Assembly: GCA_003194425.1 (NCBI GenBank)
Contig: PQXB01000001.1
Coordinates: forward strand, 1,142,728 to 1,174,727
Length of the DNA: 32,000 nt
Reading direction: 5' to 3'
DNA from: Candidatus Methanophagaceae archaeon
GTDB lineage: Archaea; Halobacteriota; Syntropharchaeia; Alkanophagales; Methanospirareceae
Part shown: positions 1-32,000 of the stretch, in pieces
Layout of the letters: each line of letters opens with the position of its first letter
Position numbering within the stretch: position 1 is the first letter of the stretch
Position numbers and translations under genes: made by a program
Notes under the pieces: generated by a model
The model's database searches: none
What the model was told of the DNA's origin: nothing
Seen by the model: the letters and a program-made list of their open reading frames with translations, nothing else

Positions 1-242
1 ATTCGAATGTCTCTTGCGTCCATCCCGCCGTTGTTCTTCACTGTCATCGTCACTTCCTTCGTCTCGCCAGGACGCAGATCCGTAGGCTCTACATCCGTTA
101 TCGTAACCGAAGAGAAGGAGGCATCTGCCGGCGGTGCAAACACGGGCAGAAGCAAAGCCACCATAAGAGCCGTCATAAAAAATACCGCGCCAAGAAGGCA
201 GACTTCTGGAAATACCGGTTTTACCACTGCATTTTTTACCAT
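1..242 (-). CDS. Partial CDS (N-terminus only, continues beyond window start): secreted or cell-surface protein with signal peptide and the start of a CARDB-like beta domain
   Basis: Absent from the ORF track because it runs off the window. My translation of the reverse complement from the ATG at 242-240: MVKNAVVKPVFPEVCLLGAVFFMTALMVALLLPVFAPPADASFSSVTITDVEPTDLRPGETKEVTMTVKNNGGMDARDIR. It has a hydrophobic signal/anchor, then a PGE..V.V.V.N.G...A pattern typical of archaeal surface-protein domains. Its ATG overlaps the stop of the upstream regulator (ATGGTAA). Confidence 0.55.
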   Translation of the reverse strand, partial: MVKNAVVKPVFPEVCLLGAVFFMTALMVALLLPVFAPPADASFSSVTITDVEPTDLRPGETKEVTMTVKNNGGMDARDIR

Positions 243-793
243 TTCTTACCCCCTCCGTTTGCTAAATCGCTTTCTATTTTTATTTTTATTGAAATCCTCT
301 CTGACTCTTCGTTTAGTTTCTCCATCTCAACATTCCCAGGCATCGCATTTATCTCGTTCATTATCTTCGAGAAGAGCAGAACCGCGAGGTTCATTTTCCT
401 GTATTCGTGTAAGAGCACGAGAAAAGTCTCCCTCACTTTTGCATCCTCTATTTTGGACAGACTCGCGGAGAGCAGTTCGATCATTGGCTTTATGTTCTCC
501 GCGAGAAATCGCTTCAAGAGTTCGCCAAAACTCTCTGTCAGCGAGGTGTTAACCGAATAACGGGTCTCTCTTCCCTCCCTTCTCTCCTCAATCGTCGGTC
601 CCCGCTTCAATTCCCGCAGACTCCGACTGACCAGTCCCCTGCTGTAGCCCGTGCCTTCTACAATTTCACGCTGCGTTACGGGGCAGGATTTGAAGAGTAA
701 GAAGCCCCAGACACGCCCCACCGACTCGCCCAGGTCCCACTGCTTCCCTATTTTCGCCAGCGAATCCAACACTTCTTGCATCACTTCGCTCAT
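236..793 (-). CDS. Winged-helix transcriptional regulator (GbsR/MarR-like)
   Basis: 185-aa ORF. The N-terminal HTH block CPVTQREIVEGTGYSRGLVSRSLRELKRGPTIEERREGRETRYSV is followed by a helical C-terminal domain. Divergent from the MFS gene across a 74-bp AT-rich spacer. Confidence 0.7.
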   Translation of the reverse strand: MSEVMQEVLDSLAKIGKQWDLGESVGRVWGFLLFKSCPVTQREIVEGTGYSRGLVSRSLRELKRGPTIEERREGRETRYSVNTSLTESFGELLKRFLAENIKPMIELLSASLSKIEDAKVRETFLVLLHEYRKMNLAVLLFSKIMNEINAMPGNVEMEKLNEESERISIKIKIESDLANGGGKKW

Positions 794-843
794 CTTTTCT
801 TCACCGATTATTTTTTACTTTTTACTAAAAAATAAATTTTGTA

Positions 844-851
844 TTTAAATA
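844..851 (+). promoter_or_regulatory. Candidate TATA box (tttaaata) upstream of the MFS transporter gene
   Basis: Consensus-like TATA 17-24 nt upstream of the ATG at 868. The spacing is slightly short for a leaderless start. Confidence 0.3.
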
Positions 852-867
852 AAGATTCTTAATTAAG

Positions 868-2217
868 ATGAAAAGAGCAAAGAACACGCAACTTGCACAA
901 GCACTTGCACAAGCACTTGCACAAGCACTTGCACCTACGCCTACGGTTCTACACCCTGCACCCGCGCTTCTGCCTCTGGTTGCGTTGCACGGCTTAATGC
1001 ACATTTTGGCGACGACGCTGCCTGCACTCTCGCCGTTGGTGAAGCAGGAGTTTTGTCTGACGAACACCGCGGTGGGCGTGCTCTCGTTTGCGTTCGCGGC
1101 TGCGATTGGGTTGGGGAGCGTCTTTTCTGGGCTGCTCTCGGACAGGTTTGACGGACTAAGGCTGGTGAGTCTGGGCTTATTCTTTGCCGCCGTTCTCTCT
1201 GCTCTGCTCTTCGTTTCACACGATTTTCTCTCGCTTACCCTCATTTTTGTCGTTATGGGATTCTGCCTCAGTCTTTACCACCCCTCTTCTCTCTCTTACA
1301 TCGCGAAATCCGTAAAGACCAGACGAGGCAGAGCCTTTGGCGTGCACGAGACAGGAGCGAGCCTGGGGCTTGCAGTAACGCCGTTAGTGGCGGGCTTGGT
1401 CTGTCTTTACGCGGGCTGGCGGTTCGTTTACTTGTTTTGGGCGTTTCCCACCGCCTTCTTCGCAATTCTGCTCCTCTCACTCTCACGCTCTCACTCACTC
1501 TCTCACTCACGCTCACTCTCTCACTCTCACTCACTCTCTCACTCTCACTCACTCTCACTCTCACACAACCACAAGCCGACGGAGGAGGGAGGAAGAACAA
1601 AATTAACGGTTTTCCTTCGGCAAATTGCAAGCACGGGCTCGCTGCGGAGGATTTACTTAATTGAGGGGTTGTTTGGGTTTGTCGTGGGCGGGTCGCTGAC
1701 TTTCATTCCGATTTTCTTTAACGAGGCGCTGGGGGTGAGCCCCGCGCTTGCGGTGGTGCTGACCTGCGTCTTTACAGCAGGCGGAGCGGTCGGGAAATTT
1801 GCAGGTGGGCATTTCTCGGACCTCGTGGGCGAGCGGCGGGTGATGGCTTTTGGCTTTTTCCTGACCGCTCCGTTCTTCTTCGTCGTGCCGTTCCTGCCGC
1901 TGTTCGGGGCGGTTCTGGCGTTGGCACTCGCGGGCTTGATTTTCCCGACCGTTCTGCCTGCGATAATTTCAAGGATAAGCAAGGAAGTCCCGCGGTCGAG
2001 GCAGGGCGTAGCGTTCGGACTGCTGATGTTCGCGGGCTTCGGCTTCGGCTCTACCTCTCGTCTGATTCTGGGTCTGGTGAGCGACATTTACGGGATTTCC
2101 GCAGTCTTCTACCCGATTGTGCTCGCTGCTTTGGTCGGGGGGCTGCTGAATATTTGCAGACCGACGGGGGTTAGGGTAGGGGGGGTTAGGGTAGGGGGGG
2201 TAGGGTTGGAGAAATGA
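868..2217 (+). CDS. Major facilitator superfamily transporter
   Basis: 449-aa ORF with about 12 hydrophobic segments. MFS loop motifs occur in both halves (GLLSDRFDGLRLV and GGHFSDLVGERRV). Carries three repeat inserts: (AQAL)n, an SLSHS-type tract and a C-terminal GVRVGG repeat. Confidence 0.85.
   Translation: MKRAKNTQLAQALAQALAQALAPTPTVLHPAPALLPLVALHGLMHILATTLPALSPLVKQEFCLTNTAVGVLSFAFAAAIGLGSVFSGLLSDRFDGLRLVSLGLFFAAVLSALLFVSHDFLSLTLIFVVMGFCLSLYHPSSLSYIAKSVKTRRGRAFGVHETGASLGLAVTPLVAGLVCLYAGWRFVYLFWAFPTAFFAILLLSLSRSHSLSHSRSLSHSHSLSHSHSLSLSHNHKPTEEGGRTKLTVFLRQIASTGSLRRIYLIEGLFGFVVGGSLTFIPIFFNEALGVSPALAVVLTCVFTAGGAVGKFAGGHFSDLVGERRVMAFGFFLTAPFFFVVPFLPLFGAVLALALAGLIFPTVLPAIISRISKEVPRSRQGVAFGLLMFAGFGFGSTSRLILGLVSDIYGISAVFYPIVLAALVGGLLNICRPTGVRVGGVRVGGVGLEK
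891..934 (+). repeat. Tandem repeat, 12 bp x3.7 (acttgcacaagc), in frame, giving (AQAL)n in the MFS N-terminus
   Basis: Perfect copies at 891-902, 903-914 and 915-926, plus a partial copy at 927-934. Confidence 0.95.
1472..1566 (+). repeat. CT/CA microsatellite-like tract (ctcact/ctctca variants), in frame, giving SLSRSHSLSHSRSLSHSHSLSHSHSLSLSH in the central loop of the MFS
   Basis: About 95 nt composed almost only of ctc/tca/cac units. Confidence 0.9.
2166..2209 (+). repeat. G-rich tandem repeat, 15 bp x3 (gggggttagggtagg); G-quadruplex motif; encodes the GVRVGGVRVGGVG C-terminus of the MFS
   Basis: Copies at 2166-2180 and 2181-2195 are identical. The copy at 2196-2209 is degenerate. Six G-runs of 3 or more, separated by 1-3 nt. 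Confidence 0.95.
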
Positions 2218-2238
2218 AAAGAAGAGAGGCATTCAATG

Positions 2239-2943
2239 TCACTTATTCAAAATCGCTTTTATCTTCTTCAGCCGTACGAAGTTCTCTCGCTCCATCTCCT
2301 CCAGCCGCATCCGAATGTACTTCCGCGTCGCCTTCAACCGAGGAATCAAAATGTATTCAAGTGCGTTCACCCGCCGCTTCGTCTTCTCCACCTCGCCCGC
2401 AAGATTCCGAACCGCCTCCTCGAGTTCTGCAAGTTTTATTAACTTCTCCAACGCCACCTCAAAGCTACTCGCACTCCTGTCCACTGCAGCCGACGAGTCC
2501 ACGAACCCGTAGCCCCGCTCGGTAACTCTCCTCGCCAACTTCAACTTACCACCCACAGCACCACCGGCAGCACCACCGGCAGCACCACCCGACTCCGACT
2601 TCAGAATCGGCACCTGCACGCCCATTATGCTGCGAGAGGAGAAATTCAGCCCAATTTCGCGTCCCGTCATCAGCGACAACTGCCGAACCTGCTCTACGCC
2701 CAACCGAGCCTGAGCAGCGACCAAAAAGCCGAACGCCTCCTTTAACTCCTCCTCAACCTCCCGCCTCGCGTCCCGCACCTCGCTGATCACATCCAAGAAT
2801 TCAGAAATAAGTGCGTCCCGCTTCTCTCGCAGCAGGTCGTGCCCCTTCTCAGCCAACTTCTCTCGCCTGCCCAGTTTCAGCAATTCCATCCTCGTCGGGC
2901 TCACGCCCTCAATTATCTCTGGCATAACTTCCCACCTTTCCAA
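2239..2943 (-). CDS. atpD: A/V-type ATP synthase subunit D
   Basis: 234-aa ORF. N-terminal PTRMELLKLGRREKLAEKGHDLLREKRDAL and C-terminal KRRVNALEYILIPRL are the signature helices of subunit D. The true start may be the internal Met at 2925. Contains a GGAAGGAAGGAVGG insert. Confidence 0.9.
   Translation of the reverse strand: MERWEVMPEIIEGVSPTRMELLKLGRREKLAEKGHDLLREKRDALISEFLDVISEVRDARREVEEELKEAFGFLVAAQARLGVEQVRQLSLMTGREIGLNFSSRSIMGVQVPILKSESGGAAGGAAGGAVGGKLKLARRVTERGYGFVDSSAAVDRSASSFEVALEKLIKLAELEEAVRNLAGEVEKTKRRVNALEYILIPRLKATRKYIRMRLEEMERENFVRLKKIKAILNK
2558..2589 (-). repeat. Tandem repeat, 12 bp x2.7 (gcaccaccggca on + strand), in frame, giving GGAAGGAAGG in AtpD
   Basis: Copies at 2558-2569 and 2570-2581, a partial copy at 2582-2589, and a degenerate copy just upstream. 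Confidence 0.9.
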
Positions 2944-2967
2944 TTTTGTTAAAGAAAAAACTTTCTC

Positions 2968-2995
2968 TTAGGGTTGTTCGTTTAGGGTTGTTCGT
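2968..2995. repeat. Intergenic tandem duplication, 14 bp x2 (ttagggttgttcgt)
   Basis: 2968-2981 equals 2982-2995. Lies between the fae-hps stop and the atpD start. Confidence 0.95.
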
Positions 2996-3005
2996 GAAAA
3001 CCAGA

Positions 3006-4250
3006 TTAGAAATCCGTCATCACCCGGTACTGGTCGATCTCCTCCTTCATTAACCGCAGAAACCTCCTCGCCACTGCTTCTACATCGCGTGAATTCGTTA
3101 TTCCGCGTCCGACGATTAGAATGTCCGCACCGCCTTTTAACGCTTCTGCTGCGTTCTCTTCGCGAATCCCGCCAGCAACCGCGACCAACATTTTACCGCC
3201 ACTGCTACCACTGCTACTCCCTCGCCCAATCCGTTTTAACTCCGCGATGTTTCCCCACGCGTGCCTCTCCGCCTGCTCCACATCGATCGCACGGTGCAGT
3301 TCCACCACATCCGGAATTGAGCCACCACTAATTGAGCCACCACTGGCCCCTTCCTCGCCACTACTCAACTTTTCAAGCAACTCCAACGGGCTCGCAACGT
3401 TCAGCATATCCAAGCAGGCGTAAATCCCGGTCTTCCTCGCCTCTGCAACCGCTTTCTCGATTGTTTGGAGCGGAGCAAGCCCAGAAATCACCACCGCGTC
3501 CGCGCCCGCGTCCGAGACCATTCTCGCCTCCAAATTCCCAGTGTCCAGCGTCTTCAAGTCCGCAACAACGAAAGTCTCGGGCTTTATCTCTTTTATTCGA
3601 CCCACAATCTCTACCCCGTACCGTTTTATCAGCGGCGTACCCGCCTCAATGATGAGGTGGTCGTTTTGCGGCAGTTCGCTCACCACCCGCTCCATCTGCT
3701 TCCAGCTCGGAATGTCAAGAGCGACCTGCAAATACGGGGGATCCCACAACTTCGTCACCTTCAGCCCCAGCGCAGGGTGCCGCGACCTGTCCTTCTCGTA
3801 AAGCACCTTCTTGATGTCAGGGAAGCCTGTCATCGCTCGCTTTACCGCCAACTTCGCAGCACCGTAGTTGAACCTGTAGATTTTGTTGTAGTCCGCAGCC
3901 TGCGGGTGCAAAAAAACGCTCACAATCACCACCAGCTCCTCCGCCTTCTCCTTCGGAATCACACCCTCCTCAACCGAGTCCGCGACCGCCTTCGCAACCG
4001 CACTCTGGGCGGGTCCAAAAATCCGCTCCGCCTCTTTCATATTCCGCACAGTCACCTTCGGCACAATCAGAGTAGACGGCTTAACCGGCAGGTTCGGTCG
4101 AATCACCGCAAAGATCGGCGTGTGCCCTGCCGACATTTGGCTCATCGCGTTCGTAAACGCCGTTCCCACAGGTCCGTTCTTCTCGCCGACCAGCAAGTCA
4201 ATGTGCGCAACCTCCGCCCCCTCTCCAACTAACGCTTCTCCTACTTGCAT
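3006..4250 (-). CDS. fae-hps: Bifunctional formaldehyde-activating enzyme / 3-hexulose-6-phosphate synthase (Fae-Hps)
   Basis: 414-aa ORF. The N-terminal Fae block is [35 protein letters not shown]...[12 protein letters not shown]. The C-terminal OMPDC-fold HPS block is [10 protein letters not shown]...[13 protein letters not shown]...[10 protein letters not shown]...GGIREENA. Two in-frame inserts: GGSISGGSI and SSSGSSGG. Confidence 0.92.
3316..3345 (-). repeat. Tandem repeat, 15 bp x2 (attgagccaccacta), in frame, giving GGSISGGSI in Fae-Hps
   Basis: 3316-3330 and 3331-3345 differ only at the last base. Confidence 0.9.
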
Positions 4251-4286
4251 TTTCTCTCTTCTTTTTCTCTCTTTCTCTCTCCCCTC

Positions 4287-4718
4287 TCACCTTTTAGTTT
4301 TAGTTCCCTGTTCTGTAGTTAGGTGTTTTGTAGTTAGGTTATCCAGCGCTCTTCTTACAGCGGGCAGCAGTTCGCTTTCAAGTTCCAACTGGTGAAAACC
4401 CGGTCTCGGTCCGCCCCGTCTCGTCGCCCGGCAGACTCGTGGGTCGGCGATTGGAAACCCGCGTGGCTTCGAGAAAATCCCGTTCTCGTCCAGTTTCCGC
4501 ACCTCCTCCACCAACTCCCGCACCCGCTCTGCCTCCCCCTCCACCAAAATCCCAAAGCAAGTCTCTTTCACTTCAACGCCTGGGCTCGGACCGCTCGTGC
4601 TCGTGCTCGTGCTCGTGCTCGCGTCTTCACTAAGCGTCGCCAAAATCTTGCTCTTTACCTGATCCGGCGTCACCGCCGAGTCCGGCGAGACCACAACTAC
4701 CCTCGTCTCAATCCCCAT
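4287..4718 (-). CDS. Hypothetical small protein (143 aa)
   Basis: The ORF has a GA-rich RBS-like sequence (aggagagaggaaATG). The composition is plausible for a protein and includes a distinctive [19 protein letters not shown] block. Contains an (ST)n insert from a 6-bp x5 repeat. I do not recognise the family with confidence. Confidence 0.55.
4593..4622 (-). repeat. Hexanucleotide repeat (gctcgt) x5, in frame, giving (ST)n
   Basis: Five consecutive units. The last is gctcgc. Confidence 0.95.
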
Positions 4719-4830
4719 TTCCTCTCTCCTTTTCCTTCAATCCCAATTTCCTCTCTCCCCCATTTCCTCTCCCCCTTCTCTTTATTCTTCTCTTTCCCTC
4801 TACTTCTCATTCTCCCTCTCTTCTCCTTAA
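4719..4830. repeat. Polypyrimidine (CT-rich) tract of about 110 nt on the + strand, in the divergent intergenic region between the 143-aa gene and purC
   Basis: The sequence ttcctctctccttttccttcaatcccaatttcctctctcccccatttcctctccccc... is almost devoid of purines. It contains the repeated unit atttcctctc(t/c)ccc. Confidence 0.85.
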
Positions 4831-4893
4831 TTTTAATTCTTGAAGAATAAAAGATATGCAAACAGCAAGCTGCAAAAAGTAAAATACATAAAA

Positions 4894-5703
4894 ATGCAAA
4901 AAGCAGAATACATAAGGAGCGGAAAAGCAAAGGACATTTACCGACGACCAGACGGCGACCTTGTCTTCGTGTTTACCGACCGAGTTACCGCGTTTGACGG
5001 CGAGAAGAAAGCGGAGTACGCGGGTAAAGGGGCAGTCTGCTGCAAATTGTCCTGCTTTTGGTTTGAGCTGCTGGAGGCTGCGGGCGTGAAAACGCACTTC
5101 AAGGAGTTCGTGCCGCCGAACGAGTTAGTGGCGGAGGAGGTGGAACTTTTGCCGGTGGAGGTGATTGCTCGGAACTTCTTGTACGGGTCGCTTTGGAGAA
5201 GGTGTAAAAGCGGCGAGCTGGAAGTGGGTAGCGAGTTTATTGCACAAGGGGCGGGAAAAAAAGGAAAAAAGGAGGGGCTGCCGCTAACTAAGAGCTTTGT
5301 GGAGTTCACGACAAAATTCGAGCCTGTTGACCGACCGGTTAGAGAGGCGGAAATTCTGGCGCGGGGTTGGTTGGACGAGAAGGAGGTGGAGGTGGTAAAA
5401 CGGGAGACGAGAAGGGTCGGAGAAATAATGCAGTCTTACTTGGCTCAAAGGGGAATTCTGCTGGCTGATTTTAAGCTGGAGTACGGCAGACGAAGGAGCA
5501 CGAGTAGTAAGAGTGCGAGCAGTGGTAGAGGGGAAATAATTCTTGCGGACGAGGTAGGCACGCCGGATGTCTGCAGGTTCTGGGAGAAGGAGGCGTACGA
5601 GAGCAGGAGAGAAATAATTAGCCTGGACAAAGACGTGTTCAGGCAAGGGAAAGGCGACCTCTTGGAGGTTTACCTTGAGGTGTGCGAGCGGATTTTAGGC
5701 TGA
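4894..5703 (+). CDS. purC: Phosphoribosylaminoimidazole-succinocarboxamide (SAICAR) synthase
   Basis: The ORF track starts at a TTG at 4840. The conserved N-terminus MQKAEYIRSGKAKDIYRRPDG..VFVFTDRVTAFDG begins at the ATG at 4894. Other SAICAR synthase blocks are GKGAVCCKLSCFWFELL and LADFKLEYG. Confidence 0.9.
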   Translation: MQKAEYIRSGKAKDIYRRPDGDLVFVFTDRVTAFDGEKKAEYAGKGAVCCKLSCFWFELLEAAGVKTHFKEFVPPNELVAEEVELLPVEVIARNFLYGSLWRRCKSGELEVGSEFIAQGAGKKGKKEGLPLTKSFVEFTTKFEPVDRPVREAEILARGWLDEKEVEVVKRETRRVGEIMQSYLAQRGILLADFKLEYGRRRSTSSKSASSGRGEIILADEVGTPDVCRFWEKEAYESRREIISLDKDVFRQGKGDLLEVYLEVCERILG

Positions 5704-5717
5704 AAAAGATTAACCGT

Positions 5718-5769
5718 CTTCAGCCCTTCAGCCGCCCTTCAGCCGCCCTTCAGCCGCCCTTCAGCCGCT
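5718..5769. repeat. Tandem repeat, 11 bp x4.7 (cttcagccgcc), spanning the stop codon and 3' flank of the 407-aa gene
   Basis: Copies at 5726-5736, 5737-5747, 5748-5758 and 5759-5769, plus a truncated copy at 5718-5725. Each copy carries tca (TGA on the minus strand). Confidence 0.95.
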
Positions 5770-6973: not shown

Positions 6974-6976
6974 TTT

Positions 6977-7003
6977 GTTAAGTTGTGTTTAAGTTGTGTT
7001 TAG
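6977..7003. repeat. Intergenic tandem repeat, 11 bp x2.4 (tttaagttgtg)
   Basis: gttaagttgtg / tttaagttgtg / tttag, in the divergent promoter region between the 407-aa gene and truD. Confidence 0.9.
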
Positions 7004-7029
7004 GAAAGGATTTCTAAAAAAGAAAGAGA

Positions 7030-8469
7030 ATGAGCCTAAAGGAAAGCCCGGAATCCGAAAAGCGAATAGGCATCTGGTACTACAGTACAAAAACTGAAGG
7101 AATTGGCGGGTTTATAAAAACAAGACCCTCTGACTTCGTCGTTCGTGAAGTTACTGCGAGAGAGGAGAGGGACGAGAGAGAGAAGAGGGACGAGAGAGAG
7201 AAGAGAGAGAAGAGAGAGAAGAGAGAGGAGGGAAAATACTTGATTTTAGAATTGACGAAGGAGAACTGGGACACTTACGGGGTGGTAAGAGAGATTTCTC
7301 GACGGCTGCGGGTCAGCAAGAACCGAATCGGGTTCGCAGGCACTAAAGATAAGTTCGCAGTTACGACGCAGAGAATAAGCATTTGGGGAGAGGGAATTGG
7401 CGAGCGGGAGGTGGAGCGAGTGAAGATAAAGGGAGTGAGTCTGAGAAAATTAGGAAGGTCGAAGAAGGCGGTTCATTTGGGCGACCTCCGCGGAAACGAG
7501 TTTGAGATTCTTGTGCGTGGCGTGGAGGGTGGAGGAGGCGAGGGAGGAGGGGAAGGAGAGGGAGGAGGTGAGAGCGAGATAAAGAGGAAGATCGAGGCAA
7601 CGACAGCCGAAATAGAGGCGGCTGGCGGGGTGCCGAATTTCTTTGGCGTTCAGCGTTTCGGCTTAAACCGCCCACTAACGCATCTAATCGGGAAGCGTCT
7701 GACAAGGGGTGAAATAAAAGAGGCGGTGCTGTGTTACATTTCGGACATTTTCCCTGACGAGACCGAGGACGCGAAGCAAGCAAGACGGCTCTGCAGACTG
7801 GAAGAGAAAGGAGGGGAGGGGGGACTGGAGGGGCTGAAAGCGGGGTTGAAAAAAATGCCGGCTTTTTTGCGGCACGAGAAGGCGATGCTGAACGAACTCG
7901 TGAGGGGTGGAAAAGAGAGCCTGAACGAGGCGGATTTCAGGTCTGCTTTCTCGGTCTTTCCGAAGAACCTGCAGAAACTCTTTGTTCACGCTTACCAAGC
8001 CTACCTCTTCAACCTCGTCCTGAGCCGTCGGAAGAGGCAGGGCTTGCCGTTCAACGAGGCTCTGGTCGGCGACTTTGTCTGCTTTCGCAGCGAACTTGAA
8101 AGGGCGGAGCGAGTTACCGAAGAGAAGGTAGAGGCTGTGAACAGGCTGGTAAAGCGTGGTCGGGCGTTTGTTACTGCTCCTCTCTTTGGCTACGAGACCG
8201 AGTTCGCGGGAGGGGAGGCGGGCGAAATCGAGAGGGCTGTGTTGGAGGAAGAGGGGTGTGAGTTGTCTGATTTTTTCATTCACAAATTCCCTGAAATGAG
8301 TTCAAAAGGCACGAGAAGGGCGGTGCTGGTTCCTGTGAAGGTGAGGTTGTGCAGTGACGGAATTAGTGAGGACGAGTTGAATCCCGGTCGGAAGAAGGTG
8401 CGGTTGAACTTCTTCTTGCCCAAAGGCTCGTACGCAACGGTCGTGCTGAGAGAATATTTAAAATCTTAA
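7030..8469 (+). CDS. truD: tRNA pseudouridine synthase TruD/Pus7 family
   Basis: 479-aa ORF. Blocks GGFIKTRPSDFVVREV, the catalytic-Asp block GFAGTKDKFAVTTQRISI, NFFGVQRFG and the C-terminal LNFFLPKGSYATVVLREY. Two large in-frame purine-repeat inserts: (E/R/D/K)n and GGGGEGGGEGEGGGE. Confidence 0.9.
   Translation: MSLKESPESEKRIGIWYYSTKTEGIGGFIKTRPSDFVVREVTAREERDEREKRDEREKREKREKREEGKYLILELTKENWDTYGVVREISRRLRVSKNRIGFAGTKDKFAVTTQRISIWGEGIGEREVERVKIKGVSLRKLGRSKKAVHLGDLRGNEFEILVRGVEGGGGEGGGEGEGGGESEIKRKIEATTAEIEAAGGVPNFFGVQRFGLNRPLTHLIGKRLTRGEIKEAVLCYISDIFPDETEDAKQARRLCRLEEKGGEGGLEGLKAGLKKMPAFLRHEKAMLNELVRGGKESLNEADFRSAFSVFPKNLQKLFVHAYQAYLFNLVLSRRKRQGLPFNEALVGDFVCFRSELERAERVTEEKVEAVNRLVKRGRAFVTAPLFGYETEFAGGEAGEIERAVLEEEGCELSDFFIHKFPEMSSKGTRRAVLVPVKVRLCSDGISEDELNPGRKKVRLNFFLPKGSYATVVLREYLKS
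7158..7236 (+). repeat. Polypurine GA-repeat tract of about 79 nt, in frame, giving REERDEREKRDEREKREKREKREEGK in TruD
   Basis: An 18-bp unit is duplicated, followed by 9-bp gagagagaa-type units. The only pyrimidines are two c residues in gac codons. Confidence 0.9.
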
Positions 8470-13861: not shown

Positions 13862-13883
13862 TTTTACGATTTTTTCTTGCCTT

Positions 13884-13896
13884 GAATTTATTTTTG
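13884..13896. promoter_or_regulatory. Candidate shared TATA element (gaatttatttttg) for the divergent methyltransferase and OB-fold genes
   Basis: The intergenic region is only 54 bp. The AT-rich element is centred about 26 nt from the ATG at 13916 (+) and about 29 nt from the ATG at 13861 (-). This is the spacing expected for archaeal TATA boxes driving leaderless transcripts in both directions. Confidence 0.4.
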
Positions 13897-13915
13897 CTCT
13901 GATTAAAGTTAAATT

Positions 13916-22824: not shown

Positions 22825-23840
22825 TTTAATTGCGCCTGTGCCGTCTCTAATCGCTCTCTCGCGTATTCACAATATTCTGGATTAATCTCAAAACCTATGA
22901 ACTTCCGCCCTAATTTCTTGCACGCCACCGCGGTGGTTCCGGACCCAACAAAAGGGTCTAAAACAATGTCTCCTTCTTTTGTGAGCAATTTGACCAATTC
23001 CTGTATTATATATTCTGGATACACAGCGGGATGAGGGCAGTTTTTTATCGTCTCCACAGAGCTCTCGATGACATCGCGCTTCAAATCATTCCCGAATATT
23101 CGGATAATCGTAAAACCTTGCTTCTCAATCTGAGTTTTTCTACCTCCTTCTTGACCACCGAATGCAGGGGCGTGAATGCCACGAATTTTCATCCTGAATT
23201 CCGCTATTTCGCCTTTCTTCACCTCCTCTATTACCTTCCGCAATTCTTCCCTCGCTCTCTCTTTCTCCTGCTCAGATAAAGCAGATTTCTCTATTAATTC
23301 AAAATATCTCCTGCCGACGCTGGTATTTCCCCTCTTTTTCCTCCCCCGCCCCCTCTCCCGCTCCTTTCTCGTGTTTCCAGTCAAGAAGGCGTCAATATTG
23401 TAATAGTATTTATTTGACTTGGCGAAATGGAAGAATGGCTCCGTGCTACTCACAAGCCGTCGCTTGAACTGTCTTGGTGTAGGGTTCGTTTTTATCCAAG
23501 TTATTGTATTTACAAGCTTCACTAGCTCCCTTTTTGTTACTTCAGCCGCAAACCTAAAAGGAATTAAGGACAAACTCCCTTCCTCGTTGTATTTGTCGCC
23601 CAGATTGAATACAATGCTTCCAGAGTCTTTAACTACCTTAACGCACTCGTGAAATATCTTTAAAAGGTTTTCAATGTACTCGTCCGGCGTGTCCTCGTTC
23701 CCGATTCCCAGCCCGTAATCCCGCTGTTTGTAGTAAGGCGGACTCGTTATAACAAGGTCTACCGCTCCTTTAGGAATATTCTTTAAGAGCTCAAAACTGT
23801 CGCCTTCGATTATCTGGTTTAGCAGTTGCTCAAATTTCAT
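22815..23840 (-). CDS. Beta-class DNA methyltransferase (N4-cytosine or N6-adenine), type II R-M partner
   Basis: 341-aa ORF. Motif IV (DLVITSPPYYKQRDYG) precedes motif I (DPFVGSGTTAVACKKLGRKFIGFEINPEY). Low GC. Overlaps both the GNAT gene upstream (11 nt) and the endonuclease gene downstream (10 nt). Confidence 0.9.
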   Translation of the reverse strand: MKFEQLLNQIIEGDSFELLKNIPKGAVDLVITSPPYYKQRDYGLGIGNEDTPDEYIENLLKIFHECVKVVKDSGSIVFNLGDKYNEEGSLSLIPFRFAAEVTKRELVKLVNTITWIKTNPTPRQFKRRLVSSTEPFFHFAKSNKYYYNIDAFLTGNTRKERERGRGRKKRGNTSVGRRYFELIEKSALSEQEKERAREELRKVIEEVKKGEIAEFRMKIRGIHAPAFGGQEGGRKTQIEKQGFTIIRIFGNDLKRDVIESSVETIKNCPHPAVYPEYIIQELVKLLTKEGDIVLDPFVGSGTTAVACKKLGRKFIGFEINPEYCEYARERLETAQAQLKWF

Positions 23841-24391: not shown

Positions 24392-24994
24392 TTATTCTTT
24401 TCGGTTTTTCGCTCTGCACTCGTTCAAAAACCCGCTCTGCAACGCCACCACTTCCCCACTGTCCTTCGCTCCAGAATACGCGAGCAACCGCTCCCAGTTC
24501 AACCGCAAAAACTCGTTCCCCCACTTGAACCCGCCCAGCACGCGTTGCGACTGCTCCTGCTCGCCGAGAATAAAAAGAGCAGCAGCAAGAGCTTCGGCAG
24601 AACTCAGCAGGAACGGCTTGCCGTAGTTTACGGGGTTTACAGCGATTAAAAACGGTAGTGCCCGCTTCCGCCTCCCCCACTCCCTCCTCCCACTCTTTCC
24701 CTTCCTTTCCCACCCTACCTGTCTTTCCCTCCCTACCTGTTCCTCCCGCCGCAAAAAATCCTCAAAACCTCCCGTCTCCGTCTTCTTCCACGAGCAGTCT
24801 AAGACCGTTACACTCGTTTTCGTAGATTTGTCTGCAGGCGAGAGAGCCTTCTCCGCAGTCGGTAGCAGCAAAATCGTGTTGTGCGGTATTTTTCGCAGCA
24901 CTTTAACCGACTTCACCAAGCCTGCGCGTGCTAATTTCCGAACCGTGCATTTCTTCGGGTCGCACTGCCCCTCGTCGTAGGCGTAAAGTCGCAT
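24392..24994 (-). CDS. tsr3: 16S rRNA aminocarboxypropyltransferase Tsr3 (DUF367)
   Basis: N-terminal MRLYAYDEGQCDPKKCTVRKLARAGLV and LDCSWKK, then C-terminal NPVNYGKPFLLSSAEALAAALFILG. A long basic/acidic insert (REEQVGRERQVGWERKGKSGRREWGRRK) splits the domain. Confidence 0.8.
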   Translation of the reverse strand: MRLYAYDEGQCDPKKCTVRKLARAGLVKSVKVLRKIPHNTILLLPTAEKALSPADKSTKTSVTVLDCSWKKTETGGFEDFLRREEQVGRERQVGWERKGKSGRREWGRRKRALPFLIAVNPVNYGKPFLLSSAEALAAALFILGEQEQSQRVLGGFKWGNEFLRLNWERLLAYSGAKDSGEVVALQSGFLNECRAKNRKE

Positions 24995-25019
24995 TTCAAA
25001 GCACCGCTGTAGTTGCAGC

Positions 25020-27698
25020 TCAAGGACTAGCCGAGAAAACCTCCACCCCCACCACTTTCTCCCCCTCCTTCACATTCATTAACCGCACACCGTAAGTGTT
25101 CCTGCCCTGCGTGGGAATGTTGCGTGCAGCGATTTTCGTCACCAGCCCGTCAGAAGTGGAAATCATAAGTTCGTCGGCGTTCCGCACCTGCTTTACGCAG
25201 ACGACTCTTCCGTTTCTCTCGCCCGTTCTTATGCTAATCACACCTTTACCGCCGCGGTGCGTTTCCCGGTAGGCGTTCAACCTCGTCCTCTTCCCGTAGC
25301 CCTTCTCGGTCACTGTAACGACCCTCTTCACCTCCCTTGACGTCGAAGAACCCAAACCCAAACCCAAATCCACCGCCTCAACGCTCGCGATTTCGTCTCC
25401 TTTTTCTAATCTCATTCCCCGCACGCCCGCAGCGTACCTGCCCATTTCCCGCAGTTCCGCTTCCTCGAACAAAATCGCCTTTCCGTTCTTCGAACTTAAA
25501 ATTACGCCTCGCCGCTGCTCGCCGCCGCCTCTTACTAACGCCACGCCAGCCAACGAGTCGCCCTTCTCGCTCCTGACCTTTACAGCAACGACCCCGTTGA
25601 CGCGGACGGATTTCAGACTTGCGAGCGTGGTTCTCTTTACTACGCCCTGTCGAGTAGCGAAAACGAGGAACGAGTCCTCTGCTCCTTCGGCTGCTCCTTC
25701 GCCTCTCGCAGCGGCTACCGCCCTGTCCAGGTCTTCAGGAATTGGAATTACAGCAGCGATTTTTTCTTTCTCTTTTTCATTTTCATTTTTTTCTTCTCTT
25801 AGCTCCTGCCCTGGAATATTCACCAGCGGTCTGCCTTTTGCGTGTCGGCTGCTGGTTGGCGGAATTTGGTAGGTCTTGACTTGGTAAGCCCGCCCTGACT
25901 CTGTAAAGAGCAGCAGCCGTTCCCTCGTGGACGCTCGTGCGAAAAGGAGAACTGTGTCGCCTTCTTTCTTCTCGAGCACCGAAATTCCTTTCCCGCCGCG
26001 CCGCTGCTGTTTAAAAATATTCGCAGGCAACCGCTTTAGGTAGCCCCGCTGCGTAAAAAACAGAACTACCTCCGCCTCTTCTACAAGGTCTCGCTCGCTC
26101 AAGAACGCCTTTTCTTCCTCGATTTCCGTCCGCCGTGCGTCCCCGTACTTCGCCTTCAACTCCGCCAGTTCGTCTTTTACGAGCCCAAATATTCGGGACT
26201 CCGACGCCAAGACCTCCCGCCGCCAATTTATTCTCGCCTCAAGTTCCGCCCGCTCGGTCTCGATTTTCCCACGCTCGAGAGCACTCAGCCGCGAGAGTTT
26301 CATTTCCAAAATCTCCTTCACCTGCTCCTCGCTCAGCCCAAACCTGCTGACGAGTGCGGCTTTTGCGGTCTTGCTGTCGGGTGCGGATTTTATTAGTTTT
26401 ATCGTCTCGTCAATCTGCGAAATCGCAACGACCAAGCCCTCTAAAATGTGGCACCGCTTCTCGGCTCGCTCCAGCTCGTACCGCAGCCGCCGGACCGTCA
26501 CCTCCCGCCGGTGCTTGACGAAGCACTCGATGAGTTCTTTCAGCGTCAAGACCCGTGGCTCGCCGTCCACCAGCGCGAGATTTATCACGCCAAAAGTGGT
26601 CTGCAGTCGCGTGTGCTTGTAGAGTTTGTTCAAGACGACCGCAGCGTCCGCACCTGCCCGCAACTCCACAACAATCCGCATTCCCTTGCGGTCCGACTCG
26701 TCTCGCAGCCCCGTAACACTCTCCAACTTCTGCGTCTTCACGAACTCGGCAATCTCCGCCACCAGACTGCTCTTGTTCACTTGGTAAGGAATTTCGGTAA
26801 CGACAAGCCGCTCCCGCCTGCCCTTCTTCTCCGCTTTTTCCACCTCTACTCGTGCCTTCAGCGTTAAAGAGCCCCTGCCGGTTGTGTACGCGTTTTTTAT
26901 GCCCTCGTAGCCTGAAATTATGCCACCAGTAGGAAAATCAGGACCCCTTAAGGTCTGCATCAACTCTTCCACCTCCTCGCCCGGCTCGTCAATCACTTTC
27001 ACTACCGCGTCCACCACCTCCCCTAAGTTGTGCGGAGGCATATTTGTCGCCATTCCGACGGCAATTCCAGAAGAGCCGTTCACGAGCAGGTTCGGGAACT
27101 TCGCGGGCAGGACCTGCGGCTCTTTTAGCGTGTTGTCGAAGTTTGGGGACCAGGAGACGGTCTCTTTCTCGAGGTCGGTTAGCAGTTCTTCAGATATTTT
27201 CGAGAGCCTCGCTTCTGTGTAGCGCATTGATGCCGGAGCGTCCCCGTCAAGGCTGCCAAAATTCCCCTGACCGTCGATTAAGGGGTAGCGGTAGGAGAAA
27301 TCCTGTGCCATTCGCGCCAGCGTGTCGTAAACGGCAGCGTCGCCGTGCGGGTGGTATTTTCCTAAAATTTCGCCCACGATCCTCGCTGACTTCTTGTGCG
27401 GTCGGTCGTGCCTGCTGCCGAGTCCGTGCATTCCGAACAAAATCCTGCGGTGCACCGGCTTCAGCCCGTCGCGTGCGTCAGGAAGAGCCCGCCCCACGAT
27501 CACGCTCATCGCGTAGTCAATGTACGAACTCTTCATCTCGTCTTCCACGCTGATTTCTGTTACTCGCTCCCCTCCCACGACGCGTCCTGCTTCTCTTTCT
27601 CGCTCTTCTTCTCCCTCGCCTTCTCGCTCTTCTTCTCCCTCGCCTTCTCGCTCTTCTTCCTGCCGCTGCCCGCTTTCGTTCATTTTTGTGCTCCTCAC
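25020..27698 (-). CDS. gyrA: DNA gyrase subunit A
   Basis: 892-aa ORF. Blocks [27 protein letters not shown], the active-site Tyr block MRYTEARLS and the GyrA box QQRRGGKGI in the C-terminal domain. The N-terminal acidic repeat extension is [21 protein letters not shown]. Confidence 0.95.
27601..27660 (-). repeat. Tandem repeat, 24 bp x2.5 (cgctcttcttctccctcgccttct), in frame, giving EEEREGEG repeats in the GyrA N-terminal extension
   Basis: 27601-27624 equals 27625-27648. A partial copy lies at 27649-27660. Confidence 0.95.
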
Positions 27699-29769
<2,071 letters not shown>

Positions 29770-29987
29770 ACTACAAAAAGCGAGACACTTAAATGAATTT
29801 TTTCGTATTCAAGATTTAGAACTGAAGAATCTACGGTGCGGTGGCAGGGCTGCAAACAGAAGAAGGTGCAGACAAGTTAGCCTACCGTCAAGGTCTGTTC
29901 GTCTTTCTTGGCAGGAAGCGGAGAGGGGCTGGTTCGGATTCCTCGGCGGGGCTGCTCGGGGTCCGGGCTACTTCCTGCTCGGACGGC

Positions 29988-30080
29988 GGAGAAGGGAGAA
30001 GAAGTAGAAAAGGAAAGGCAGAGAAGGAGAAAGAAGAAAGAGGGAGGGAGAGAAGAAAGGGGGGGAGAAGAAAGGGGGGG
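29988..30080 (+). repeat. Intergenic polypurine tract of 93 nt, ending in 15 bp x2 (agaagaaaggggggg) with two G7 runs
   Basis: ggagaagggagaagaagtagaaaaggaaaggcagagaaggagaaagaagaaagagggagggagagaagaaagggggggagaagaaaggggggg. Only two pyrimidines. Confidence 0.9.
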
Positions 30081-30106
30081 CGTTCCACCCCCTGTTTTTA
30101 TTTTTT
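30074..30106 (+). terminator. GC hairpin (ggggg-cgttcca-ccccc) followed by T5-A-T6: terminator-like signal on the + strand
   Basis: The stem is 30076-30080 with 30088-30092, around a 7-nt loop, followed by tgtttttatttttt. Oligo-T runs are the known archaeal termination signal. No annotated + strand gene lies upstream. Confidence 0.35.
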
Positions 30107-30252
30107 GAAGATAAAAAATTTAAGGTGGAGGGGAAAGTGCGTTTAGCGGTGCCGAACGCGAGTTGGGCAGAACTTTCACGGTTCGGTCGCTGGTAAAGTG
30201 GCGGTAGGTCTGCTGTTTCTCGTTCCGCTGCTGGTCTTTTTTTACCCGTGGA

Positions 30253-31269
30253 TTAAGCGTTATTTTTGAGTCTGAACTCTGACGAAAAAACTCCTTTCAG
30301 CCCCACGCAGTCCACCAAAATCATATTCAACCGCACTAACAAAGCAAAAGAGAGACCCACTGCAGGTCCTACGCCGAGCAACTCAAACACTACCGCGGTC
30401 GCACCCTCCATCAGCCCCAACCCCGAGACGGTTACAGGAACGAACCGCAGAATCGTGATCAACGGGTGCAGAAGGAAGTAGGCTAAAAACCCCAACTCCG
30501 CCGCCGTCACGCCAAGCGACAAACCGATGAGTTGCCACTGAACTGCAAGAAGAACCCAACAGACAAAGTAAATTACGAGAATAAGAGGAACGGTCTCGCG
30601 TATTGAAAAACTCTTCTCCTTCATTTTTTGAAACTCCGCTTCAAACCGCCGCACGAAAGCAAAAGGAATCTTGGCGAGGAAGTTGGCGGAACGCGATTCT
30701 GCTGTCCAGACTACCCACAAAATGACCGCACCGAGTCCCAAGAAGACCCCGCCGCCAACGCACAGCGGCAGCAGCAGGCTCGCACCGCCTACCCCTCCCG
30801 CTCCGCTCCCGTCCACCGAAATTACGCCGGTAAAGAAGACCAAGCCCACGAAGCCACCTGCTACCTTCAAAATGAATTCTATCCCCTGCGGAGCGAGAAT
30901 AGCAGCCATTCCTTCTGAAATTCTGCAGCCTGTGCGGTTTCTCAAGAAATAGGGGACGAGGAAGAAGCCCACCCTTCCCGGCGTTACATCCGAGGCGAGC
31001 ATTCCTGCGAAGTGGGCGAAGAAGGAGTCCGAGAACTTGAGGCTGACGCTGTTCCCTACGCCCTCTCCCACACCCATTTTTCGCAGGAGGTAAGAGAGAC
31101 GGTAAGCCATAAAAAGATTGTAGCAGAGGTAAGAGACGCCTGCGAGTGCGAACAAGAAAATATTCACACCTCTTACCACCTCTGCAACCTTGTGAAAGTC
31201 TATTTTGTAAAACAGAAGTGCGAGAATTCCTACTCCCACGAGCACCTGAACAAAACCTTTTTTATTCAT
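30253..31269 (-). CDS. Flippase-like / lysylphosphatidylglycerol-synthase-TM-type membrane protein (UPF0104)
   Basis: 338-aa polytopic ORF. The N-terminus VQVLVGVGILALLFYKIDFHKVAEVVRGVN and the overall 8-TM layout resemble the UPF0104 family. Confidence 0.5.
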   Translation of the reverse strand: MNKKGFVQVLVGVGILALLFYKIDFHKVAEVVRGVNIFLFALAGVSYLCYNLFMAYRLSYLLRKMGVGEGVGNSVSLKFSDSFFAHFAGMLASDVTPGRVGFFLVPYFLRNRTGCRISEGMAAILAPQGIEFILKVAGGFVGLVFFTGVISVDGSGAGGVGGASLLLPLCVGGGVFLGLGAVILWVVWTAESRSANFLAKIPFAFVRRFEAEFQKMKEKSFSIRETVPLILVIYFVCWVLLAVQWQLIGLSLGVTAAELGFLAYFLLHPLITILRFVPVTVSGLGLMEGATAVVFELLGVGPAVGLSFALLVRLNMILVDCVGLKGVFSSEFRLKNNA

Positions 31270-31583
31270 AAACTTTTCTTTAACAAAGTAAACTTTACTA
31301 AAGAAATTGTTTTTAAGACAATTTACTCCAGTTTGTCAAACTTGTTCAAAAACTCTTTCCACTTCCCAAAGTCCTTCGCACTGAAATGTTGCCTGTCTTG
31401 GTCCTTTGAAAAATAAAAATACCTTTCAAAGAATCATAAAAATGAAATTCGTCTTTAATTAAATCCTACACTCTTCGAATTTGGTTTTTGATAAGCAAAT
31501 CGCAAGAGAAGCACAAATGCTACTCTTCCCAACATCTCCTTTTTTACTAACTTGAATCCATAGTATAAAAAATTATTTATTCG

Positions 31584-32000
31584 TCAATTAGATATATCTA
31601 AAATCCACTCAATCCATCTAAGAACTGTTTGAGCTCTTCTTCTGTAAGTGGTTTCTGCATCAATATTGTATAATTTACATTGTTTCATAATATTGACTAC
31701 TTCGTCTTTCGTTGGAGGTTCTGATTTTTTAAGATAAAATTTTAGAGTTTCTTTAAATGGTTTGTGTTCAAGAATCTGTTTAACAATTGCTAAATTCTTT
31801 TCCTTGTGAGGCAAGGACATTATTTTCAATCCGTTTTTGGTTAATTTAACCCGGATTGTGTTGTCTTCATCCTTAAACTTCTCTATTAGTTCGAGATACC
31901 TGCCTGCATTAAAATAATAATCTGTTTGCCTTTTATCAAAATCGTAGTTTGATGTAATCTCTTCCTTGGATAATTCATTTTCAACTAACAAACCAAATAA
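31584..32000 (-). CDS. Partial CDS (C-terminal part; the reading frame stays open to the window end): AT-rich hypothetical protein, possibly DNA-binding
   Basis: The track ORF starts at a TTG at 31991, but the frame has no stop upstream to position 32000. A 60-nt hand count (31681-31740) gives about 28% GC. The segment KRQTDYYFNAGRYLELIEK...TYRRRAQTVLRWIEWIL looks like helical/winged-helix modules seen in restriction-system-associated proteins. The family is not recognised. Confidence 0.45.
   Translation of the reverse strand, partial: LFGLLVENELSKEEITSNYDFDKRQTDYYFNAGRYLELIEKFKDEDNTIRVKLTKNGLKIMSLPHKEKNLAIVKQILEHKPFKETLKFYLKKSEPPTKDEVVNIMKQCKLYNIDAETTYRRRAQTVLRWIEWILDISN

Follow-up and report, generated by a model that had tools for sequence, protein, structure and literature searches.

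The stretch of DNA analysed here (32 kb, hereafter the window), most likely a chromosomal segment of a methane-oxidising ANME-1 archaeon, has a GC content of 53% and carries 29 genes, 22 on the minus strand and 7 on the plus strand, most of which, like the spacers between them, contain short tandem repeat arrays. Pfam assigns to the window a housekeeping core made of A/V-ATPase subunit D, SAICAR synthetase (purC), TruD, archease, CarA, Trm5, Tsr3, GyrA and GyrB. It also recognizes genes related to tetrahydromethanopterin (H4MPT), i.e., those encoding Fae-Hps, a RimK-like H4MPT:glutamate ligase and a hydantoinase-like protein of the H4MPT pathway. The other families found are a major facilitator superfamily (MFS) transporter, DUF2102, alkaline-phosphatase-superfamily, UbiA-family, DUF63, DUF4349 and radical-SAM proteins, a fusion of a methyltransferase (MTase) with Mrr, a pair formed by a restriction endonuclease (RE) and an MTase, and a GNAT protein. 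Every gene identity proposed in a preliminary description of this DNA was matched by Pfam. A tRNA scan and an Rfam scan of the 32-kb window gave no match.

Arrays were called with Tandem Repeats Finder (TRF), those scoring at least 50 being considered as strong and weak ones being included down to a score of at least 30. The window contains 35 non-overlapping strong arrays, which cover 5.1% of its length, whereas dinucleotide-preserving shuffles (n=30) contain 0.2 on average and 1 at most. This density of 10.9 strong arrays per 10 kb is to be compared with 1.02 per 10 kb pooled over a reference set of 80 loci centred on GyrB and taken from various bacteria and archaea (1.33 Mb in total), among which only those of 22-27% GC approach the density of the window. 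The census against shuffled sequences and related genomes suggested by the preliminary description thus reveals an excess in both cases, other ANME-1 loci being far lower as well. The units are 6-30 bp long, 12 bp being the commonest length. At least one array is found in 25 of the 29 genes at a score of at least 30, as anticipated by the earlier count of at least 25 of about 30 coding sequences, and in 18 of the 29 at a score of at least 50; 7.1% of the coding bases lie inside arrays. At all ten positions singled out earlier, an array was recovered at the same place or within a few bases, with the translation that had been given. The four genes devoid of arrays include the methyltransferase of a low-GC restriction-modification pair and a gene of 30% GC.

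The length of the repeated units depends on the context in which they are found. In coding DNA, it is divisible by 3 for 27 of 27 strong arrays, which are thus all in frame, and for 50 of 56 arrays when weak ones are included. In non-coding DNA, this holds for only 2 of 8 strong arrays and 3 of 13 with the weak ones, i.e., approximately the random one-third (Fisher p about 1e-5 for the contrast between the two compartments). Furthermore, the 2 kb of non-coding DNA carry 66 arrays per 10 kb, versus 19 in coding DNA. As arrays are densest in non-coding DNA, where units of any length occur, the underlying process is frame-blind: it acts on DNA regardless of reading frame or coding status.

The composition of the arrays is also highly biased. 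One strand is at least 80% purine in 50% of the coding arrays and 69% of the non-coding ones, versus 3-4% of length-matched non-repeat segments. Within genes, the strand rich in purines coincides with the sense strand in 27 arrays and with the antisense strand in 3. On their sense strand, the arrays are composed of 41% G, 29% A, 17% C and 13% T, as compared with 32, 24, 22 and 22% outside arrays. The encoded residues are mainly G (23%), E (19%), S (10%) and R (9%), Cys and Tyr being absent (0%) and Met and Ile almost nil. The strict rule of units divisible by 3, the lack of stop codons and of codons for Cys and Tyr, and the location of purines on the sense strand imply, as far as can be deduced from the sequence, that the tracts are translated rather than excised.

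Different arrays have GGAGAG/GAAGGAG-like 12-14-mers in common (11 pairs versus 1.8 in unit-shuffled controls). For example, the GGAGAG-type DNA that gives GEGE in other places is read from the opposite strand in the (SP)n array of Trm5. Polyampholyte motifs (ERDEREKR, HRDR, DER, GEREGE) recur in unrelated proteins. The process favours purine/pyrimidine-asymmetric sequences of the GGAGAG/GAAGAG type on either strand. The comparison between arrays revealed no whole unit common to two loci, the longest common words being 12-14 nt. A common template or mobile unit was rejected as a source of the arrays on this basis. The "unknown templated mechanism" evoked in the preliminary description thus found no evidence in its favour.

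Comparison of closely related strains indicates that the arrays are hypervariable. An exact look-up of the window CarA retrieved ten contigs whose samples and assemblers are independent of each other (ENA, JGI, NCBI, Logan), all encoding an identical CarA and neighbouring proteins of different lengths. Together with two contigs of the GyrB region, they form a set of 12 contigs, 98-100% identical, of which 84.8 kb were aligned to the window. The differences from the window amount to 493 single-nucleotide polymorphisms (SNPs) and 63 indel events. Among the latter, 56 lie inside arrays, which represent 8.7% of the aligned sequence (binomial p = 1.5e-51), and 44 are an exact multiple of the local period. 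Sixteen of the 48 arrays covered are polymorphic, a 17th being the (EEEREGEG)n array of GyrA, which differs by 36 bp in the sister strain L082. Several loci are multi-allelic, with six lengths for (GFGG)n of orf240 and four each for (SGGG)n of orf252, (HRDR)n of Trm5 and the GEGE tract of the hydantoinase-like protein. One contig shows a unit change, yet no SNP in 2.9 kb. Such length polymorphism between sister strains had been put forward as a check in the preliminary description. In addition, at four loci, a segment of 12-18 bp is single in one strain and doubled in another, which indicates that births or complete reversions are also segregating. These data show a turnover made of birth, expansion, contraction and decay, which also explains why perfect arrays are found alongside degenerate ones.

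Assemblies are known to contain local errors at tandem repeats (PMC9879509), and it could be supposed that the repeats, or their length differences, were made by short-read assemblers. However, the arrays are 20-90 bp long, below typical Illumina read lengths (a usual figure and not the read lengths of the samples considered here), and those located in genes obey the rule of units divisible by 3. Above all, they recur at identical sites in the 12 contigs, which come from four sources and different assemblers, and they differ by clean steps of whole units, the sequence being otherwise 98-100% identical. Recurrence in independent contigs, together with whole-unit differences, therefore excludes an assembly or sequencing artefact, an objection that the preliminary description had itself raised and whose probability is virtually nil. 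The features of the window and the alleles seen in sister strains are listed in Table 1.

Table 1. Repeat arrays of the window and the low-GC restriction-modification island (sizes of alleles are given relative to the window).
Feature	Positions	Strand	Unit, copy number and remarks
MFS transporter N-terminus, (LAQA)n	891-934	+	12-bp unit x3.7, perfect; TRF, Pfam MFS_1
MFS loop, (SLSHSH)n	1476-1564	+	18-bp unit x5.1; sense strand pyrimidine-rich (CTCTCA)
A/V-ATPase subunit D, (GGAA)n	2548-2591	-	12-bp unit x3.7
Fae-Hps, SGGSI x2	3315-3344	-	Perfect 15-bp duplication; sister proteins 414 or 417 aa
DUF2102 protein, (ST)n	4593-4621	-	6-bp unit x4.8
Two intergenic arrays	4742-4825		16-bp and 17-bp units, not multiples of 3; + strand pyrimidine-rich
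orf407 3' end into downstream spacer	5723-5768		Perfect 11-bp unit x4.2
TruD, ERDEREKR tract	7158-7230	+	9/18-bp unit; 18-aa insert vs M. mazei TruD (1z2z); sister strain +18 bp
TruD, GGGEGGGEGEGGGE	7531-7568	+	12-aa insert vs 1z2z
RimK-like H4MPT:glutamate ligase, GKGEGAGEG	8587-8631	-	24-bp unit x1.9
RimK-like ligase, (LNE)n	9253-9274	-	9-bp unit; sister strain +18 bp
Alkaline-phosphatase-superfamily protein, (DER)n	10167-10219	-	9-bp unit x5.9
UbiA-family prenyltransferase, GEREGEGE tract	10556-10641	-	18/30-bp unit; sister strain +6 bp
orf252, (SGGG)n	14033-14094	+	12-bp unit x5.2; four alleles: 0, -12, -24, -48 bp
Archease, GEAGGEAG and EEEREEER	14858-14911	-	Two 12-bp duplications; GEAGGEAG 1 vs 2 copies (173 or 177 aa)
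CarA interdomain linker, ARGGARGRAGARA	15643-15683	+	6/18-bp unit
H4MPT-pathway hydantoinase-like protein, GEGEGEGE/GEGWKEEGE	16703-16767	-	Four alleles: -18, 0, +3, +24 bp
orf240 (membrane protein), (GFGG)n	17644-17717	-	12-bp unit x6.2; six alleles, 0 to -48 bp
Trm5, (SP)n	18430-18478	-	Alleles: 0, +18, +24, +30 bp
Trm5, (GNES)n	18611-18662	-	Perfect 12-bp unit x4.3; alleles: 0, -12, -24 bp
Trm5, (HRDR)n	19161-19227	-	Perfect 12-bp unit x5.6; alleles: 0, -12, -24, -36 bp
DUF4349 protein, EEIDEK x2	19836-19869	+	15-bp duplication; 1 vs 2 copies among strains
Low-GC island	21670-23840	-	GC 0.40-0.44; RE_SacI_N-like gene and N4/N6 methyltransferase; nearly repeat-free
Tsr3, QVGRERQVGWER	24705-24740	-	18-bp duplication; 1 vs 2 copies among strains (194 or 200 aa)
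GyrA N-terminal extension, (EEEREGEG)n	27597-27659	-	Perfect 24-bp unit x2.6; sister strain L082 36 bp shorter
GyrB second tract	28871-28906	-	18-bp unit x2; in 99%-identical sister, not in GyrBs of at most 80% identity
GyrB, (GAGV)n, GHKL/transducer domain junction	29008-29074	-	12-bp unit x5.6; sister strain 2 units fewer
Intergenic, upstream of gyrB	29699-29769		21-bp and 13-bp units; 13-bp unit copy number differs in L082
Intergenic, purine-rich	29992-30080		23-bp and 15-bp units; 15-bp unit 1 vs 2 copies in L082

The inserts are private to one lineage. The GyrB of the window is 673 amino acids (aa) long and that of its 99%-identical sister 665 aa, whereas most ANME-1 GyrBs of at most 80% identity have 634-637 aa; the alignment columns of (GAGV)n and of the second tract are gapped in every other GyrB aligned except this sister. 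In the same way, Trm5 reaches 435 aa in the window and 415-439 aa in its sisters, versus 350-370 aa in all other ANME-1 (at most 56% identity), and the (HRDR)n, (GNES)n and (SP)n tracts are found in none of the other ANME-1 Trm5 aligned. The orthologues of other ANME-1 lineages thus show gaps in GyrB and Trm5, not the homologous inserts that, according to the preliminary description, would have made these tracts ordinary conserved linkers.

Comparison with known structures places the inserts between conserved blocks. Those of Trm5 fall between the blocks aligned with the Trm5b structure (5yac), at query residues 102-134, 293-320 and 357-405, and the GyrB insert lies at the GHKL/transducer junction of E. 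coli GyrB (6eng; query 216-243 versus chain 213-217). The two TruD inserts (18 aa and 12 aa) and those of archease are likewise located between the blocks aligned with 1z2z and 1jw3, respectively. CarA is different: with 383 aa versus 382 aa for E. coli CarA, it has an interdomain linker remodelled by the repeat and no net insertion. The statement that orthologues lack such inserts therefore stands for GyrB and Trm5 as well as against the structures of GyrB, Trm5b, TruD and archease, and has to be amended for CarA. The inserts sit at domain junctions, linkers or termini, and the tolerance of repeats in essential proteins that was proposed earlier holds for non-conserved sites. An AlphaFold2 model of Trm5 (71-sequence alignment) had a mean pLDDT (predicted local distance difference test) of 60, with core segments also below 50, and was not used for insert placement.

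The densities of strong arrays at related loci confirm this restriction. Four ANME-1 loci with GyrB 77-80% identical have 0-0.7 arrays per 10 kb, and 35 loci with ANME-1-type MutL mostly 0-2. The densities are 0.5 in Alkanophaga (a thermophile of 51% GC), 0 in ANME-1 lineages of 55-56% GC, 2.3 at the locus of 'Ca. Methanospirare jalkutatii' and 3.0 in the ANME-1 lineage L155 (50% GC). GC content or thermophily as a cause is ruled out by the values of Alkanophaga and of the 55-56%-GC lineages. The process is thus far more active in the lineage of the window than in its relatives.

Some other ANME-1 lineages carry their own private GyrB inserts at different positions. The GyrB of M. jalkutatii (P0079, P0080; L085:10001-12076) has private Ser/Ala-rich inserts, SAASSASVASSASSASES, in alignment columns 1-25 and 639-660, which differ in length between the two clusters. 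Joined to the density of this locus, this indicates that a milder form of the repeat tendency exists in ANME-1c. The lineage with the nearest MutL (L102 and L103; MutL 67% identical to P0287, described below) was considered as a possible repeat-rich relative and rejected, its arrays being of a different kind: one dispersed intergenic 10-bp motif, ACACAGATTA (x2.5-4), found at eight or more separate intergenic sites in L102:5235-16726 and L103:1837-4375 and often paired with TAAATCCGCG arrays. These ACACAGATTA arrays look like a dispersed family of binding sites or of elements similar to miniature inverted-repeat transposable elements.

It could be argued that the repeats are adaptive, i.e., that G/E/R/K/S tracts have been positively selected as disordered charged spacers, the process being maintained because varying copy numbers are advantageous, as they are in contingency loci. 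Such spacers might keep proteins soluble or thermostable at 50-60 C, favour the formation of condensates or make activity tunable. The orientation of the arrays in genes (27 purine-rich on the sense strand versus 3 pyrimidine-rich) and the recurrence of polyampholyte motifs in unrelated proteins are in line with this hypothesis, and the authors of the Borg study discussed below argue for selection on comparable repeats (PMC9879509). However, the arrays are 3-4 times denser in non-coding DNA, with an equal purine/pyrimidine bias. Their positions are private to the lineage and differ from those of the private GyrB inserts of other ANME-1 lineages, while their allele spectra look like neutral stepwise drift. 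Furthermore, such repeats are lacking in the thermophilic Alkanophaga and in ANME-1 lineages whose GC content is similar or higher, and the proteins affected are housekeeping enzymes of the cytoplasm rather than surface or regulatory proteins. Positive selection as the main cause of the repeats thus appears unlikely.

The organism was identified through several of its proteins. Five proteins of the window are identical to PXF51846-PXF51858 of NCBI, labelled 'MAG: Candidatus Methanophagaceae archaeon' and encoded by a 1,187,124-bp contig binned by its depositors as an ANME-1 genome; some of them also match proteins of 'ANME-1 cluster archaeon ex4572_4' without any difference. GyrB has matches at 99-100% in a few metagenome contigs only, the next relatives, of at most 80% identity, all belonging to ANME-1/Methanophagales/Methanospirareceae. 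A scan of a genome collection with GyrB gave, among the matches listed, relatives of at most 59% identity. As the relatives of GyrB are all ANME-1, the organism is an ANME-1 archaeon. Most likely, the window comes from the chromosome of one ANME-1 (Methanophagales) lineage of hydrothermal sediment of the Guaymas type. When its terminal genes were looked up by exact match in order to extend it along the source contig, no record was found.

Several gene arrangements of the window and of its sister strains can be mentioned here. The atpD gene lies directly downstream of fae-hps on the same strand (2239-4250), detached from the usual ATPase operon, and no further A/V-ATPase subunit gene occurs anywhere in the window. 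The 480-aa gene at 12419-13861 encodes an N6/N4 DNA methyltransferase fused to a C-terminal Mrr-type restriction-endonuclease domain; its product has 495 aa in the sister strain L087, partly via a 12-bp insertion beside a (GKK)n array. In the 99% identical strain L082, a restriction-modification cassette encoding a RE_CfrBI-like endonuclease and an N6/N4 methyltransferase (2649-5056) is found between gyrB and gyrA, which abut directly in the window (27698-27699). In the sister strain L086, a 2.3-kb insertion of four genes, including one of the Na/Ca-exchanger family (987-3328), separates the MTase-Mrr gene from orf252 and is not found in the window (site at about 13863-13916). It fits the strain-variable hotspots reported for ANME-1 (PMC13385816). 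Besides the low-GC island of Table 1, a second one is located at 31584-31991 (DUF7226 gene, GC 0.30) and is also nearly repeat-free. Both islands are probably recent horizontal acquisitions, which provide an internal contrast to their repeat-rich neighbours.

The closest precedent for the repeats of the window is that of the Borg and mini-Borg extrachromosomal elements of Methanoperedens, which are methane-oxidising archaea as well; these elements carry pervasive in-frame tandem repeats (Schoelmerich et al. 2023, PMC9879509; bioRxiv 10.1101/2023.08.02.551345). In both cases, arrays are pervasive in genes and spacers, the density of the window (10.9 per 10 kb) being far above that of its relatives, and units are divisible by 3 inside genes and mostly not between them. 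In both cases also, each locus has unit sequences of its own, close relatives differ in the number of copies, homologues lack the repeats, and the purine-biased sense strand encodes disorder-promoting residues. With the criterion used for Borgs (perfect arrays of at least 50 nt with at least 3 units), the window has 0.62 regions per 10 kb covering 0.37% of bases, as compared with about 0.55 regions per 10 kb and 0.62% of bases in Borgs and at most 0.01% in their hosts (PMC9879509).

However, the two systems differ in several respects. Borgs are linear elements of Methanoperedens, while the window belongs to ANME-1 and most likely to a cellular chromosome encoding core housekeeping enzymes. The repeat proteins of Borgs are enriched in extracellular and membrane proteins; those of the window include GyrA, GyrB, Trm5, TruD, Tsr3, archease, CarA, AtpD and Fae-Hps. 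About 86% of the proteins are affected here versus about 1.5% in Borgs, although detection thresholds differ. The bias is towards adenine in Borgs and towards G+A, led by G (G 41%, A 29%), in the window. Borg arrays are near-perfect, whereas those of the window are mostly short (2-6 units) and imperfect (67-95% matches), with only two perfect arrays over at least 50 nt with at least 3 units and eight over at least 30 nt. Such short and imperfect arrays point to continuing birth and decay. Borgs are linear, with terminal inverted repeats and genes on one strand per replichore; the window lies inside a 1.19-Mb contig, its gene content is of the core chromosomal type and its genes are distributed over both strands (22 and 7).

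These resemblances raise the question of whether the window could itself come from a giant Borg-like extrachromosomal element of ANME-1 that captured housekeeping genes, the repeats being a trait of the element. The grouping of 22 of the 29 genes on one strand and the size of the source contig (1.19 Mb, near that of the largest Borgs, about 1.1 Mb) would agree with it. Nevertheless, genes are found on both strands, and the run of core genes is dense (gyrA, gyrB, carA, purC, truD, trm5, tsr3, archease, atpD, fae-hps, H4MPT biosynthesis). Moreover, GyrB, Trm5 and MutL share 80%, 56% and 67% identity with the nearest other ANME-1 lineage, as under vertical descent. Joined to the binning of the contig by its depositors as an ANME-1 genome and to the differing pattern of Borg repeats (A-rich, near-perfect and enriched in extracellular proteins), this makes such an element very improbable.

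Low-complexity inserts occur in the housekeeping proteins of Plasmodium falciparum (for context, PMC12699852, PMC4770516). As in the window, these lineage-specific tracts lie between the conserved blocks of essential enzymes and are length-polymorphic between isolates, and the residues they contain reflect a mutational or strand bias of the genome. The organisms and the tracts are different: an extremely AT-rich eukaryote with Asn/Lys tracts in one case, a prokaryotic sequence of 53% GC with G/E/R/S tracts and 6-30-bp units in the other. The parallel with Plasmodium drawn in the preliminary description is apt as an analogy, since placement, composition and polymorphism all match.

Bacterial contingency loci and variable number tandem repeats (VNTRs) comprise phase-variable simple sequence repeats, MIRU-VNTR (mycobacterial interspersed repetitive units) and the repeats of Ehrlichia ruminantium. 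Contingency loci are few and affect surface, virulence or restriction-modification genes or promoters, and their units are usually not divisible by 3, which leads to on/off switching. Here too, copy-number variation driven by slippage separates near-identical strains. However, the strong coding arrays of the window are all in frame (27/27) and arrays are spread over 25 of the 29 genes, while the two restriction-modification genes of the first low-GC island are nearly repeat-free. On both counts, frame and spread, the class of contingency loci does not fit.

Surveys of prokaryotic proteomes, in the passages that bear on this point, describe low-complexity regions as persistent and highly conserved (Ntountoumi et al. 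2019, PMC6821194) and trace them to short repeats that have proliferated (PMC6821194; Persi et al. 2023, PMC10120016). By comparison with what these passages describe, the tracts of the window are young, lineage-private, polymorphic and present in most proteins. Full-text literature searches and the main ANME-1 genomics papers yielded no description of such repeats for an archaeal chromosome or for ANME-1. The earlier statement that they had not been described for archaea has thus to be restricted: Borg and mini-Borg elements of Methanoperedens precede them, and within the literature searched the statement stands for archaeal chromosomes and ANME-1.

Weak mismatch repair was one of the causes considered in the preliminary description: loss or weakening of MutS/MutL or NucS would let slippage intermediates persist. 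In agreement with it, no MutL match could be placed on the 1,187,124-bp source contig. However, a full-length MutL (P0287, 628 aa, with all four Pfam domains) is encoded by the contig L096 and by the near-identical L100 and L101. These contigs carry the same purine/pyrimidine-rich repeat type as the window, which makes their assignment to the same species plausible but unproven. Their densities are 12.8 (L096), 11.8 (L100) and 5.8 (L101) strong arrays per 10 kb, and the MutL gene of L096 has a GC content of 0.65 at third codon positions. MutL P0287 itself bears REKERQREK, GGGTGGRAGTGTG and EGEGEVEVEVEGEE tracts. Furthermore, the mutation spectrum between strains is ordinary, with a transition/transversion ratio of 1.47 over 279 variant sites. 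Only 4 of the 63 indel events are 1-bp indels, at three sites that are all outside the 13 listed homopolymer runs of at least 7 nt. Loops of 6-30 nt are in any case outside the recognition of MutS-type proteins. A mismatch-repair deficiency thus seems most unlikely, and this part of the earlier proposal is not supported.

The reading that we favour, to which we give a probability of about 0.7, is a lineage-specific and frame-blind process of tandem duplication and slippage, of which selection would let through only hydrophilic inserts that are in frame and located in loops and linkers. Short tandem duplications (6-30 bp) would arise, expand and contract at an unusually high rate in one ANME-1 lineage, probably by replication slippage or template misalignment at microhomologies. 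The higher rate could come from a lineage-specific change in the replisome, in flap processing or in the handling of secondary structures, not from mismatch-repair loss. In coding DNA, purifying selection would remove out-of-frame, hydrophobic or structurally disruptive products. This filter would retain units of 3n, without stop, Cys, Tyr or Met codons and with a purine-rich sense strand, encoding G/E/R/K/S/D peptides located in loops, linkers and termini. As a result, nearly every protein, including gyrase, Trm5, TruD, archease and Tsr3, would possess translated, probably disordered and mostly neutral inserts of variable length. A process of seeding or expansion acting at the DNA level and hitting nearly all genes had already been proposed in the preliminary description. 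It agrees with the 25 genes reached out of 29, with the highest density in non-coding DNA and with the polymorphism between strains.

Several observations weigh against this duplication-and-filter reading. The 27:3 sense-purine bias and the recurring G/E/R peptides could reflect positive selection and not tolerance. SNPs are enriched approximately two-fold in arrays (19% of SNPs in 8.7% of the sequence), which may be due to misaligned repeat units or to a real local mutator effect. The intermediate densities of M. jalkutatii and L155 (2.3 and 3.0 per 10 kb) indicate that the trait is graded and not all-or-none. The data cover 32 kb and one 5.5-kb contig of unproven species link, so that "genome-wide" is an extrapolation. 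Lastly, the replication and repair genes inspected amount to one probable MutL.

Archaeal PolB and PolD slip on repeat templates, according to the Borg study (PMC9879509). It can be speculated that the process generating Borg repeats is a cellular, host-encoded activity, i.e., an altered or dedicated replication or repair function with a preference for GGAGAG-type purine/pyrimidine motifs, which in this ANME-1 lineage runs on the chromosome; this idea is tentative and rather doubtful.

The practical consequences of these repeats concern both strain tracking and sequence comparison. The arrays are ready-made VNTR markers for tracking ANME-1 strains in Guaymas and Pescadero samples. In the lineage of the window, they distort orthologue lengths, alignments, clustering at 90% identity and the polishing of metagenome-assembled genomes (MAGs). 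For instance, unit differences put window proteins into separate clusters or leave them unmatched.

What is new here is a repeat proliferation of the Borg or Plasmodium type on what is most likely an archaeal chromosome, with most genes affected. Its density is about ten times the usual prokaryotic level and essential enzymes such as DNA gyrase are included. A survey of 117,861 genomes, in the part that concerns archaea, gives them the lowest density of short tandem repeats, without enrichment over simulated genomes (PMC12699852). Borgs are the celebrated archaeal exception to this low density; they are extrachromosomal and their hosts are nearly repeat-free. A syntrophic archaeal lineage with approximately 7% of its coding bases in young, hypervariable repeats would show that such a regime is compatible with cellular life. 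It would also show that part of a clade can acquire this regime over an evolutionary distance corresponding to 80% identity between GyrBs. The existence of repeat-rich and repeat-poor sister genomes offers a direct handle on what generates Borg-type repeats. If the process is indeed host-encoded, comparison of sister lineages, together with thermophilic ANME-1 enrichment cultures, could reveal the enzyme responsible.

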